NCBI GenBank assembly: GCA_965372795.1
Contig: CBDVDR010000010.1
Span: 1-64,000, forward strand
DNA: 64,000 nt
Direction of reading: 5' to 3'
Source of the DNA: an uncultured bacterium
Lineage (GTDB): Bacteria > Zixibacteria > MSB-5A5 > GN15 > FEB-12
Part shown: positions 1,939 through 2,593 of the stretch, one piece after another
Layout of the letters: the number at the start of each line of letters is the position of its first letter
Numbering within the stretch: the first letter of the stretch is position 1
Program-made: the position numbers and the translations under genes
Notes under the pieces: model-generated
Database searches by the model: none
What the model saw: only the letters and a program-made list of their open reading frames with translations
What the model was told of the DNA's origin: nothing

Positions 1939-2051
1939 TGGTAGCGGGGTGGGGATTTCATCAGTCCCAAAGCGAAGCGTGGGACCAAGTCCCGAAACGG
2001 AGTGAGGGAAAACCCCTTACAACCACACTATGTGTGTTTCGGGTTATGAGC
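1939..2051 (-). pseudogene. Degenerate 3' half of tRNA-fMet (att-like relic) interrupted by palindromes
   Basis: tggtagcgggg...ggattt and ttcgggttatgagc match the tRNA at 2152-2228. Inserted hairpins gtccc-aaagcgaagcgt-gggac and cacac-tat-gtgtg lie between them. Confidence 0.75.
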
Positions 2052-2151
2052 TTGCTTAGTTTATTATATAATTTATAGAAAATCCGGTATCTGAAGGAAA
2101 TTCCGCTCAAAAAGAAACTCCCGAAGTCGTTAGACCTCAGGAGTTTAAATT

Positions 2152-2228
2152 TGGTAGCGGGGACAGGATTTGAACCTGTGACCTTCGGGTTATGAGCCCG
2201 ACGAGCTACCGAACTGCTCCACCCCGCG
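2152..2228 (-). tRNA. tRNA-fMet (initiator, anticodon CAT)
   Basis: Reverse complement is CGCGGGGTGGAGCAGTTCGGTAGCTCGTCGGGCTCATAACCCGAAGGTCACAGGTTCAAATCCTGTCCCCGCTACCA (77 nt): C1:A72 mismatch, three G-C pairs in the anticodon stem, encoded CCA. Confidence 0.97.
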
Positions 2229-2239
2229 GACGTTCAGCC

Positions 2240-2267
2240 AATATATACCCCATAACCCGCATGTCAA
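2240..2267 (-). promoter_or_regulatory. Sigma70-like promoter of tRNA-fMet
   Basis: TTGACA-N16-TATATT, 11 nt upstream of the tRNA. Confidence 0.65.
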
Positions 2268-2276
2268 GCGATATAA

Positions 2277-2516
2277 TTAACTTGAAATATTCTCTTTTAA
2301 ATATCTTCTGCCTTGACCTGTTTTTAACCATTTTTCACGCTTCATTGCATCTCCACGAGTTGAAAATGATTCATAATATACCAACTTCCAATCCCTGTCG
2401 ATTTTGGTTGTTTTGCAAAGTTTATTATTATGTTCTGATAATCTTCGTTGAAGATCAATTGTATGGCCGGTATAAATTTTCTCTGAGTTAGATTGTATTA
2501 CGTAGACAAAATACAT
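2277..2516 (-). CDS. Small stand-alone GIY-YIG nuclease (79 aa)
   Basis: MYFVYVIQS...IYTGHT.DLQRRLSEHN...W.LVYYE...A.KREKWLK. The true start is likely ATG 2516 rather than 2585. Confidence 0.85.
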   Translation of the reverse strand: MYFVYVIQSNSEKIYTGHTIDLQRRLSEHNNKLCKTTKIDRDWKLVYYESFSTRGDAMKREKWLKTGQGRRYLKENISS

Positions 2517-2535
2517 ATTTGCGTTTCTGCGTTTT

Positions 2536-2593
2536 CGACGAGCTACTCCGCCTTGGCGGACTCCACCCCGCGGACGTTCAGCCAATATATACC
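2536..2593 (-). pseudogene. Duplicated 5' part of tRNA-fMet plus its upstream leader, D-loop replaced by a palindrome
   Basis: cgacgagctac-[tccgccttggcgga]-ctccaccccgcggacgttcagccaatatatacc versus the tRNA locus cgacgagctac-[cgaactg]-ctccaccccgcggacgttcagccaatatatacc. Confidence 0.85.

Follow-up and report, generated by a model that had tools for sequence, protein, structure and literature searches.

A tRNA-fMet locus carrying an Slx1-like GIY-YIG nuclease gene and a GC hairpin: a possible selfish cassette of bacterial stable-RNA genes

Introduction

In the window analysed here (the whole 64-kb stretch of DNA, from an uncultured Zixibacteria bacterium), a 79-aa GIY-YIG nuclease gene and an intact initiator tRNA gene are enclosed by the halves of a second, disabled copy of that tRNA, in which a short GC hairpin replaces the D-loop. 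Related nuclease genes in many bacterial phyla have the same layout beside them, and it has the look of a selfish element, so far little known, that resides in stable-RNA genes. We give about an even chance (roughly 50%) to the reading that the locus belongs to a widespread family of selfish cassettes, composed of nuclease and hairpin, that ride on tRNA genes, keep one working tRNA and spread or amplify by nuclease-stimulated recombination between tRNA repeats. The cleavage, target and mobility of the cassette are what we infer from this layout.

Mini-nucleases of the UPF0213/Slx1-like type are common in bacteria and two of their structures are solved; to our knowledge no function has been established for them. 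The Escherichia coli protein YhbQ presumably belongs to this group. In the available text of PMC1564403 the UPF0213-type family is treated as a repair enzyme of unknown role and put on the non-selfish side of the GIY-YIG superfamily; it takes the prokaryotic Slx1-like proteins for repair enzymes passed on by vertical descent and has the selfish GIY-YIG lineages arise elsewhere. The same text uses the word tRNA three times, only for a fusion to a TrmH methyltransferase, and mentions no tRNA-gene neighbourhood. Our search of the literature, made mostly without subscription journals, brought up no account of bacterial mini GIY-YIG genes linked to tRNAs.

A GIY-YIG gene adjoining tRNA genes is also the arrangement of SegB, a free-standing homing endonuclease in the tRNA region of T4/T6-like phages. 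SegB, a member of the I-TevI-like lineage, has about 220 aa, part of which binds DNA. It cleaves inside tRNA genes; tandem amplification of tRNA plus segB through homologous recombination depends on its catalytic activity, and SegB homologues show enrichment in the vicinity of tRNAs of many isotypes (PMC13096335, part of the text available). GIY-YIG proteins in the rRNA genes of CPR bacteria were reported only in non-intron insertions and were judged to be outside spread by homing (PMC11270868, part of the text available); the word tRNA has 0 occurrences in PMC11270868.

Organization of the locus

Every part of the layout given in the preliminary description was recovered on the minus strand, base for base, in the order 5' tRNA-fMet fragment, GIY-YIG ORF, promoter-like site, intact tRNA-fMet and 3' tRNA fragment (Table 1). 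The intact gene is called tRNA-Met(CAT) by ARAGORN and is the sole tRNA in the window. It scores 65 bits with Rfam, with a non-canonical 1:72 pair, and direct reading identifies C1xU72 and three G-C pairs in the anticodon stem as initiator hallmarks.

The disabled copy (tRNA* in Table 1) starts with 33 nt, 2593..2561, that exact-match mapping finds identical to 2249..2217 and that comprise the leader and tRNA positions 1-12. The palindrome TCCGCCAAGGCGGA (14 nt, 2560..2547) then stands in place of a 7-nt D-loop segment; folded as DNA, this hairpin has -4.9 kcal/mol (z = -3.3). The copy is broken in the anticodon stem (30 | 32) by a 484-bp block that holds the ORF, the promoter, the intact tRNA and a terminator. 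Position 31 is the sole absentee between the two tRNA fragments, and the claim that the halves nearly abut is thus upheld. In the 3' half, 88 nt (2037..1950) stand in for 21 nt of the variable region and T-arm, and what is left of the T-stem is not the same as in the intact tRNA. The 113-nt 3' fragment as a whole (1939-2051, filler included) folds as DNA at -17.9 kcal/mol (z = -2.4), and its filler has no match across the 80 related loci described below. The fragments joined in silico fold better than mononucleotide shuffles (z = -4.2); no functional cloverleaf is possible from them, and we give this result no weight.

Elsewhere in the 64-kb window no second GIY-YIG gene was found, and the only other tRNA-like match of comparable length, a single exact 14-nt match at 44329-44342 (E 0.013), is read as chance. 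The neighbouring genes encode an acetyltransferase, a Na/H exchanger, MotAB, Mfd and an isochorismatase. A truncated IS3-type transposase fragment lies at 1634-1867, and positions 1-2000 have a higher G+C content.

Table 1. Coordinates of the features of the tRNA-fMet locus in the window
Feature	Positions	Strand	Basis or remark
Duplicated 21-nt leader with -10 box TATATT, 5' of tRNA fragment	2573..2593	minus	Within the 33-nt identical block
tRNA* (disabled copy) positions 1-12	2561..2572	minus	Exact match to intact tRNA
GC hairpin TCCGCC-AA-GGCGGA at D-loop	2547..2560	minus	Unique in window
tRNA* positions 20-30, ending in 5' strand of anticodon stem	2536..2546	minus	Exact, 11 nt
19-nt spacer ahead of ATG, no Shine-Dalgarno-like purine run	2517..2535	minus	Direct reading
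79-aa GIY-YIG ORF including stop, Slx1-like/UPF0213 type (predicted), catalytic domain only	2277..2516	minus	Pfam PF01541
Promoter-like P2, TTGACA-16-TATATT, for intact tRNA	2240..2267	minus	11/12 consensus matches
Intact initiator tRNA-Met(CAT)	2152..2228	minus	ARAGORN; Rfam
Terminator-like hairpin and T run, 3' of intact tRNA	2115..2146	minus	Sequence signal
A+T-rich spacer, terminator to 3' fragment	2052..2114	minus	Direct reading; unmatched in related loci
tRNA* positions 32-45, anticodon loop and 3' strand of stem	2038..2051	minus	Exact, 14 nt
88-nt hairpin-rich filler	1950..2037	minus	Replaces variable region and T-arm
tRNA* positions 67-77 and 5 common trailer bases	1934..1949	minus	Exact, 16 nt
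Terminator-like hairpin at locus end	1911..1932	minus	Sequence signal

The nuclease

The ORF matches the Pfam GIY-YIG family with 62.4 bits (cut-off 22.6, E=5e-17). Its homologues begin at the same Met as the 79-aa ORF. The gene call stored for the window is a 102-aa version that starts at TTG and reads through the tRNA fragment, and this longer form is not conserved. A profile search of the PDB matched 1ywl and 1zg2 at about 1e-14 and SLX1 at 8e-6. The AF2 model (pLDDT 95) has the GIY-YIG alpha/beta fold, with a three-stranded sheet (strands 2-8, 14-19 and 44-51) and three helices. GIY-YIG structures head its Foldseek list, with Slx1 at TM 0.70, I-TevI at TM 0.52 (E 0.16) and UvrC at E 1.1; the At-HIGLE catalytic domain (7wme) is a further fold relative.

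Members of the prokaryotic Slx1-like branch, as the accessible part of PMC1564403 describes it, are nearer to 1ywl, 1zg2 and Slx1 than to UvrC or I-TevI and have neither an auxiliary domain nor a conserved C-terminal Asn. The UPF0213/prokaryotic Slx1-like proteins EF2693 (1ywl) and BH0048 (1zg2) are the best sequence and fold matches of the window protein, which shares with UPF0213 a minimal stand-alone GIY-YIG domain without the conserved C-terminal Asn; this residue is absent from the invariant columns of 35 sequences. The 79 aa comprise the catalytic domain only, with no separate DNA-binding domain, and the ORF stops short of the C-terminal RING/PHD zinc finger of eukaryote-type SLX1, a protein that works with an Slx4 partner. 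Judged from sequence and model, the nuclease is a member of the minimal prokaryotic Slx1-like/UPF0213 branch and not of the I-TevI/SegB type. Y5, Y15, R25, H29, N30 and E61 are invariant across 35 relatives. By analogy with known members we take them to be the catalytic residues, namely the GIY and YIG tyrosines, the Arg, the His/Asn and the metal-binding Glu. The invariance of these residues, the confident model and the match of the nearest solved folds to structure-specific Slx1 make activity of the nuclease probable.

The window protein has no match in PADLOC, in which the protein of a related locus, L003, has a weak match only (PDC-S14, E 0.0012, 15.9 bits). PHROGs gave no useful match and NCBIfam none at its curated cut-off. 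Among phage and plasmid records, tblastn returned only distant matches of at most 45% identity, for example Bacillus subtilis yazA (its product, YazA, is a UPF0213 protein), with a best identity of 42% in phage records, and no vector was identified.

Related loci

A locus search with an alignment of 6 close sequences as the query showed that 575 of 602 candidate stretches, from one-genome-per-species contigs, encode relatives; the best 80 were kept. The closest relative of the window protein among them has 60% identity. The ORF lies within a 23S rRNA gene in 24 of the 80 loci, and in 51 of the remaining 56 the protein has 76-101 aa. An intact tRNA on the same strand adjoins the ORF in 39 of these 56 (at most 250 nt upstream in 29, at most 200 nt downstream in 13, both in 3) and is missing in 17. 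Partial tRNA copies (14 or more exact nt, no further than 600 nt from the ORF) were found in 29 of the 44 tRNA-bearing loci. Partial tRNA segments number 75 in the 60.9 kb near the ORF vs 8 in the 141.8 kb far from it. These counts rest on exact matches; gapped tRNA-to-flank alignments were noisy, often bridged the ORF and served as pointers only.

Split layouts that resemble that of the window are present in L009, L065, L013 and L055. The disabled tRNA copies show clean block replacements, not random decay. Recurrence among the 56 non-rRNA loci bears out the view that nuclease, tRNA fragment and palindrome together form a family trait and not a case of local decay. Nuclease clades track the tRNA type and, partly, the taxon, and the loci of the Ignavibacteria type have an upstream promoter sequence in common, which is consistent with orthologous sites.

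Tandem arrays of nuclease and pseudo-tRNA were found in two genomes. L001 contains three identical 344-bp units and L002/L003 at least 10 complete 368-bp units plus an eleventh that runs past the end of the stretch, both in metagenome-assembled records in which the assembly of such repeats may be unreliable. The L002/L003 units are called tRNA-Met by ARAGORN. The 24 loci in 23S rRNA genes are from Saccharibacteria; there the ORF is in the terminal loop of a 23S helix, with an 18-bp inverted repeat on both sides.

The hairpin

The motif TCCGCC-N2-GGCGGA occurs once in the 64-kb window, vs 0.00 expected. With its flanks, the hairpin of the 5' fragment shares 97% identity over 34-36 nt with pseudo-tRNAs in L002, L003, L004, L008 and L010. 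The exact motif TCCGCC-N2-3-GGCGGA is found no more than 300 nt from the ORF in 16 of the 56 non-rRNA loci and in 0 of the 24 rRNA loci (best 80 of 575 relatives). The proposed association of this palindrome with the nuclease is therefore sustained, and it extends over six tRNA types. Of 21 hairpin sites, 18 fall between +241 and +306 relative to the ATG, most of them between +241 and +261, which is at or just past the 3' end of the ORF; sites distant from the ORF in related loci belong to further array units, with one exception. The variants TCCGTCC, TCCGTCCCT, TCCCGAA, TCCCGCA and CCTGCCT track nuclease clades, and their stems stay perfect via paired changes. In L057 and L078, tRNA 5' fragments that carry a hairpin are repeated in tandem upstream, unaccompanied by an ORF.

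In several relatives the hairpin encodes the end of the protein, a tail of the SPPKAE type. The idea that the hairpin is kept for such a peptide tail was rejected because it lies past the stop in L006, L012, L047, L061 and L073 and ahead of the ATG in the window, L057, L060 and L071. A local origin by fold-back copying of GGTGGAG was likewise rejected as a general explanation, because the same hairpin occurs in tRNA-Pro, Phe, Asn, Cys and Ser contexts.

Two further palindromes had been singled out in the preliminary description. CACAC-N3-GTGTG has 3 copies vs 0.05 expected, all within 2024-2763; two of the three belong to a repeated terminator-like hairpin 3' of the neighbouring acetyltransferase gene. 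GCGAAGC is not enriched in the window (6 copies vs 3.4 expected; 8 of 100 shuffles reach 6).

Expression signals

It had been suggested that the nuclease hijacks the tRNA promoter by duplicating the tRNA 5' end. The placement supports part of this: a hairpin-bearing 5' tRNA fragment lies directly 5' of the ORF and an intact tRNA 3' of it, as also in L013, L038, L055 and L071. Hijacking of the promoter as a whole is not supported, as the duplication begins at -21 and takes in the -10 box only. Beyond -21 the similarity between the leader copy and the P2 region is not significant: over 51 nt its score is equalled in 424 of 1000 shuffles, and over the proximal 25 nt in 67 of 1000. Duplication of the whole promoter was dropped on the ground that the -35 regions of the two leader copies are not significantly alike. 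The upstream leader copy in the window has no recognisable -35, and the window ORF no Shine-Dalgarno-like run ahead of its ATG. Many relatives have a terminator-like hairpin between tRNA and ORF. The layout at the other loci fits expression of the ORF from tRNA-gene signals.

Comparison with known systems

The window protein differs from SegB in its length of 79 aa, in being Slx1-like and in its place on a bacterial chromosome rather than in a phage. The window locus also has hairpin-substituted pseudo-tRNAs, of which none are mentioned for SegB in the accessible part of PMC13096335. The nuclease family shares with homing endonucleases of the SegB/I-TevI type its residence in or beside highly conserved genes (tRNA genes in 39/56 loci, 23S rRNA genes in 24/80), whereas the known homing enzymes have the DNA-binding domain that the window protein lacks. 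The 24 relatives in 23S rRNA genes, in a helix loop between inverted repeats, are exactly the kind of GIY-YIG ORF found in CPR rRNA-gene insertions; the window copy, in contrast, is in a tRNA locus with direct tRNA repeats.

A group I intron bearing a homing endonuclease is found in cyanobacterial tRNA-fMet genes. There, as in the window, an insert with a nuclease gene splits an initiator tRNA gene close to its anticodon, but the halves in the window carry disabling substitutions, lacking D-loop and T-arm as an intron-split tRNA would not, and a separate intact tRNA is supplied. No group I or II intron family matched positions 1-8000 at E up to 1. Duplication of the target, with a working tRNA preserved, is also seen with integrative elements directed at tRNA genes; the insert here differs in being smaller than 0.5 kb, in having no integrase, in the duplication of 5' parts as well and in the hairpins that replace loops.

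Discussion

The proposed cassette would consist of a GIY-YIG gene for an Slx1-like, catalytic-domain-only protein and a short GC hairpin (TCC...GGA), set inside duplicated stable-RNA genes. The ORF would be transcribed from tRNA-gene signals, and the DNA cuts made by the nuclease would fall on or close to the tRNA gene or the hairpin; since the protein has no DNA-binding domain, it would most likely recognise structure and not a long sequence. Recombinational repair between the tRNA repeats could then copy or amplify the cassette into tandem arrays, while the retained intact tRNA would keep the host viable. The hairpin-substituted copy would serve as a non-functional homology arm and may also resist cutting. 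SegB offers, by analogy, an experimental precedent for nuclease-driven recombination between tRNA repeats. The density of intact tRNAs counts for the cassette as well, at 1 in 64 kb in the window vs an adjacent tRNA in 39 of 56 loci. Further points in its favour are the partial tRNA copies and the exact hairpin near the ORF, the hairpin variants with their intact stems, the split layouts, the tandem arrays, the ORFs in a 23S helix loop and the probable activity of the nuclease. Against it, vertical descent would give the same pattern of clade, tRNA type and taxon; a repair mechanism could make perfect palindromes with no selection to keep them; and a nuclease aimed at the loops missing from the disabled copy would cut the intact copy too. 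The 17 of 56 loci without an adjacent tRNA, the missing DNA-binding domain, the verdict of PMC1564403 on the prokaryotic branch, the want of a Shine-Dalgarno sequence and a -35, the terminators between tRNA and ORF, and the origin of the arrays in metagenome-assembled records are further points against.

The nuclease might instead be a host repair factor, vertically inherited and co-transcribed with highly expressed stable-RNA genes, that resolves stalled forks or R-loops, with fragments, hairpins and arrays as recombination scars. Slx1 is its nearest solved relative and maintains rDNA repeats, and vertical descent has been argued for the prokaryotic branch (PMC1564403, available part); the clades that follow tRNA type and taxon and the promoter sequence common to the Ignavibacteria-type loci would agree with this. 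We nevertheless consider it unlikely, as the ORF itself is part of identical multi-copy arrays and sits inside a 23S helix loop, the same hairpin accompanies different tRNAs in different phyla, and the disabled copies are clean block replacements. The succession of promoter, structured RNA, terminator-like hairpin and small nuclease ORF, a common layout, brings to mind a system acting at the RNA level, in which RNA of the pseudo-tRNA or of the hairpin controls or neutralises the nuclease as an addiction module or the nuclease acts on tRNA or pre-tRNA. For an RNA-neutralised nuclease the comparison is the type III toxin-antitoxin pair, and the fold relative At-HIGLE acts on RNA precursors. The ORF-less fragments in L057 and L078 point the same way, as does the TrmH fusion, from which earlier authors proposed a role in RNA metabolism (PMC1564403, in the text available). 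The PADLOC results, with no match for the window protein and the weak PDC-S14 match alone for L003, speak against such a system, and the arrays repeat the ORF together with the RNA. GIY-YIG enzymes characterised so far are also mainly DNases, and we hold this reading to be quite improbable.

The 3' fragment begins beside the anticodon loop, as an att repeat would, and the transposase fragment and G+C-richer DNA are close by. The preliminary description had drawn the analogy to integrase att sites, and the locus could on these grounds be the relic of an integrase-mediated island at a tRNA gene. That is now largely refuted and very improbable: the neighbours include no integrase gene, the intact tRNA and the fragment are only some 100 nt apart, the 5' fragment and leader are duplicated too, and the layout recurs with the nuclease in 29 loci. 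Repeats of tRNA genes can be mis-assembled, and a tandem duplication could also decay by chance. We regard such a decay or artefact as scarcely credible at this locus, where the halves abut exactly and a motif with 0.00 expected occurrences is present, and the arrangement recurs in dozens of independent records.

Beyond the cassette reading, a bolder one is possible but doubtful. The nuclease, of roughly 80 aa, and a portable GC hairpin (TCC-stem-loop-stem-GGA) might together be a DNA parasite of a new class, one that enters loops in stable-RNA genes (the D, anticodon, variable and T loops of tRNA genes and a helix loop of 23S rRNA) and recognises folded or cruciform DNA, not a long sequence. 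The hairpin would then be a cis-site or a repair footprint, and spread would proceed by duplication of the target with one working copy spared. A single strand of a tRNA gene can form a four-way junction.

For annotation, the pseudo-tRNAs at nuclease loci are called as genes by tRNA finders, and ORF predictions there run into tRNA sequence. The recurring set of intact tRNA, nuclease ORF and hairpin-looped pseudo-tRNA suggests that at least part of the UPF0213 family behaves as a selfish element of stable-RNA genes. This would extend the SegB result, the nuclease-driven amplification of tRNA genes, from phages to the chromosomes of many bacterial phyla. If the DNA-parasite reading is true, the orphan UPF0213/YhbQ family would gain a testable role.

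Organization of the tRNA-fMet Locus

The locus is best understood as belonging to a large family whose members have a minimal Slx1-like nuclease gene and a GC hairpin lying within duplicated or invaded stable-RNA genes, a reading to which we give a probability of about 90%. The preliminary description, of an intact tRNA-fMet and a GIY-YIG gene enclosed by the two halves of a disabled tRNA copy, is accurate, because the parts and their order were found as described on the minus strand between 2593 and 1934, and position 31 is the sole tRNA position absent between the two fragments. 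The intact tRNA has the hallmarks of an initiator: a 1:72 mismatch flagged by Rfam and three G-C anticodon-stem pairs, which were read directly. The 5'-end duplication starts at -21, and upstream of this point the two leader copies have no significant likeness. The T-stem remnant in the 3' fragment is unlike the T-stem of the intact tRNA, and therefore the two probably come from different alleles. This agrees with, and does not prove, a scenario in which a block that brought its own tRNA was inserted into a resident gene.

Parts of the locus in 5' to 3' order
Feature	Position	Strand	Remark
Whole locus	2593..1934	minus	
21-nt leader with -10 box, then tRNA positions 1-12		minus	33 nt identical to the equivalent of the intact gene
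14-nt palindrome TCCGCC-AA-GGCGGA		minus	takes the place of a 7-nt D-loop segment
tRNA positions 20-30, then 19-nt spacer		minus	
79-aa ORF	2516..2277	minus	
Strong promoter-like site (P2), TTGACA-16-TATATT		minus	between ORF and intact tRNA
Intact tRNA-Met(CAT)	2228..2152	minus	
Terminator-like hairpin, then about 60 nt of A+T-rich spacer		minus	3' of intact tRNA
tRNA positions 32-45, then 88 nt of hairpin-rich filler		minus	filler in place of 21 nt
tRNA positions 67-77 with 5 shared trailer bases, then second terminator		minus	

Nine nucleotides of the anticodon loop and stem (CATAACCCG) recur as their reverse complement in the spacer of P2 (window 2251-2259). With a BLAST E-value of 13, this match is probably due to chance.

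Genomic Surroundings

The neighbors are ordinary chromosomal genes, encoding a GNAT acetyltransferase, a Na/H exchanger, MotA/MotB, Mfd and an isochorismatase-family protein, together with a truncated IS3-type transposase fragment. Window 1-2000 has a G+C content of 0.46 against about 0.38 alongside; it contains the isochorismatase-family gene (631-1473) and the 77-aa N-terminal transposase fragment (1634-1867), which converges on the tRNA locus, and it may be foreign DNA that adjoins the locus. Further away, three tandem paralogs at 27953-32321 each contain DUF1254 and DUF1214 domains. The low-G+C stretch at 46755-60444 (0.28-0.31) looks like a defense island. It encodes an 1812-aa Roc-COR-TPR protein followed by a type I restriction-modification set of HsdR (53919-56318), HsdS (57824-58981) and HsdM (58981-60444), with two further ORFs between HsdR and HsdS.

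The GIY-YIG Protein

The ORF matches the Pfam GIY-YIG domain with E=5e-17. The gene call on record has 102 aa and starts at a TTG within the tRNA fragment. This extension is absent from all 14 other homologous cluster representatives, ten of which start at the internal Met and four of which are just 1-5 residues longer; the product is therefore probably 79 aa long. A family profile search returned the two solved UPF0213 proteins at about 1e-14, with SLX1 next. The AlphaFold model, built with 35 relatives, is confident (pLDDT 95) and superposes on Slx1 catalytic domains with a TM of about 0.7 and an rmsd of 1.5-2.4 Å; I-TevI and UvrC match it far more weakly. Residues Y5, Y15, R25, H29, N30 and E61 are invariant across the 35 relatives. 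The protein belongs to the minimal Slx1-like branch, which Dunin-Horkawicz and colleagues describe as stand-alone and lacking the C-terminal Asn (PMC1564403). Three loci titled Peregrinibacteria/Peribacteria (L035 2194-2841, L056 2501-3148, L068 2022-2792) encode GIY-YIG with a C-terminal extension in a single ORF of 215-256 aa, and the extension in L035 and L056 appears NUDIX-like by eye.

Many Relatives Lie in or Beside Stable-RNA Genes

A scan of one-genome-per-species contigs confirmed at least 575 relatives among 602 candidates, and the best 80 loci (L001-L080) were retained. The closest among the matches listed, in a record titled Zixibacteria, is only 60% identical, and the sampled relatives therefore all fall outside the window's own lineage. 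Record titles include Ignavibacteriota, Bacteroidota, Planctomycetota, Verrucomicrobiota, Omnitrophota, Patescibacteria and others. In 24 of the best 80 loci, every one titled Saccharibacteria, the ORF is inside a 23S rRNA gene. There it occupies the terminal loop of a helix at Rfam model position 583/584 and is flanked by 18-bp perfect inverted repeats. Published work already describes GIY-YIG ORFs in rRNA insertions of CPR bacteria that are not introns (PMC11270868). The L051 ORF ends within an opposite-strand 5S rRNA gene beside the end of a 23S gene (2501-2884), which is a further stable-RNA context for the family.

Among the 56 non-23S loci, 39 have an intact same-strand tRNA gene near the ORF, within 250 nt upstream (29 loci) or 200 nt downstream (13), with both in 3. 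The tRNA types include Met (initiator-like), Asn, Phe, Arg, Asp, Lys, Gln, Ser, Pro, Cys, Glu, Leu, Gly and Ala. A partial copy of the tRNA, counted where 14 or more nt match exactly no further than 600 nt from the ORF, is present in 29 of the 44 tRNA-containing loci; 75 such segments were found in 60.9 kb near the ORF vs 8 in 141.8 kb elsewhere.

Two gene orders recur. In the initiator-tRNA group (L001, L003-L005, L007, L008, L010) a promoter and intact tRNA, usually with a terminator-like hairpin, are followed by the ORF and then a pseudo-tRNA, a near-full disabled copy whose D-loop is swapped for TCCGCC-N3-GGCGGA or a variant. Similar hairpins also replace the variable region and/or T-loop in L001, L004, L005, L009 and L010. 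The ORF in this group often runs into the pseudo-tRNA and stops at the D-stem TAG, which accounts for the SPPKAE-type tails of several homologs. The second order resembles that of the window: a hairpin-bearing 5' tRNA fragment, the ORF and, directly after it, the intact tRNA (L011, L013, L038, L055, L071, L080), with 3' fragments further downstream in L013 and L055. L009 and L065, like the window, have a pseudo-tRNA split around intact tRNA and ORF, at a different position. The window 5' fragment, hairpin included, shares 97% identity over 34-36 nt with the pseudo-tRNAs of L002, L003, L004, L008 and L010; the 88-nt filler has no match among the 80 loci.

Several loci are amplified as assembled. 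L001 contains three identical 344-bp units of ORF and pseudo-tRNA behind a single intact tRNA. L002 and L003, overlapping stretches of one contig, together contain one intact tRNA, ten complete 368-bp units and an eleventh leaving the fetched DNA. In L057 and L078 the tandem repeats consist of hairpin-bearing 5' tRNA fragments and include no ORF. Directly behind the L001 array (3490-4850), a direct repeat of about 130 bp (pseudo-tRNA positions 31-76, terminator and about 40 nt) surrounds a 1.2-kb segment with a degenerate tRNA-like stretch and small ORFs, perhaps a second small insertion at that tRNA. ARAGORN labels the pseudo-tRNAs of L002 and L003 as 78-nt tRNA-Met genes, and such arrays would raise tRNA counts in automatic annotation.

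A Hairpin That Accompanies the Nuclease

Exact TCCGCC-N2-3-GGCGGA occurs no more than 300 nt from the ORF in 16 of the 56 non-23S loci, whereas the 24 rRNA loci have none at this distance. Of 21 sites, 18 fall between +241 and +306 relative to the ATG, mainly +241 to +261, independent of tRNA type and of which tRNA loop is replaced; the others are 24-115 nt upstream. More distant sites are, with one exception, further array units. Variants, among them TCCGTCC, TCCGTCCCT, TCCCGAA, TCCCGCA and CCTGCCT, have perfect stems, and their distribution tracks nuclease clades. Judged from these sequences, the hairpin is part of the cassette, although a palindrome-creating mechanism without selection would give perfect stems too. 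Retention for coding was rejected because the hairpin may stand after the stop or before the start, and a role as terminator because it has no T run.

Three palindromes had been proposed as cis sites or products of the nuclease. The TCCGCC palindrome is exceptional (one in 64 kb vs 0.00 expected). CACAC-N3-GTGTG is in excess (three vs 0.05 expected, all local), but two of the three are a repeated terminator-like hairpin behind the acetyltransferase gene, and GCGAAGC is not enriched in the window. The repeat in question is a 23-nt direct repeat with a terminator-like hairpin (GGCTGACACACGAAGTGTGTTTT), in two copies about 95 nt apart (2650-2776, minus strand), the first overlapping the GNAT stop codon. 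The L004 pseudo-tRNA ends in a similar CACAC...GTGTG hairpin.

Mechanism and Alternatives

The closest experimental precedent is SegB, a phage GIY-YIG homing endonuclease. SegB cleaves within tRNA genes, its catalytic activity is needed for recombination-dependent tandem amplification of the tRNA-plus-segB segment, and its homologs are enriched beside tRNAs of many isotypes (PMC13096335). By analogy, we infer that the cassette spreads selfishly. The nuclease would cut DNA at or near the tRNA gene or hairpin, and repair between tRNA repeats would then copy or amplify the cassette. Target duplication would leave one functional tRNA, and the hairpin-substituted copy would be a dead homology arm, possibly cut-resistant. 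The protein lacks a DNA-binding domain and is similar to a structure-specific enzyme; it may therefore recognize folded DNA, whether a hairpin, a cruciform or a four-way junction formed from a single strand of the tRNA gene.

Several points weigh against selfish spread. The correspondence of clade to tRNA is also expected under vertical descent, and 17 of the 56 non-23S loci have no adjacent intact tRNA (two lie at contig edges, another adjoins a 5S rRNA gene, and in five more there are tRNAs or tRNA fragments a bit further away). If the missing loops were the target, the intact tRNA would stay unprotected, and the expression signals predicted for the window ORF are weak. The nuclease may instead serve host repair at highly transcribed genes; the minimal Slx1-like branch is described as probably repair-related and vertically inherited, with selfish GIY-YIG lineages of other origin (PMC1564403). 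As a further alternative, the system may work at the RNA level, with pseudo-tRNA or hairpin RNA regulating or neutralizing the nuclease, or with the nuclease acting on RNA. A relic of integration at a tRNA gene is poorly supported, and no integrase is present among the genes neighboring the locus. An artefact is likewise a poorly supported explanation.

The rRNA-insertion form and phage SegB are already known. A full-text literature search, thin on subscription journals, returned no account of mini GIY-YIG genes linked to tRNAs in bacteria, of pseudo-tRNAs with hairpin substitutions beside such genes or of their arrays, and the apparent novelty is provisional to that extent. We class the finding with a known kind, selfish nuclease genes in or next to stable-RNA genes, to which it would add a bacterial tRNA-linked form that is provisionally new.
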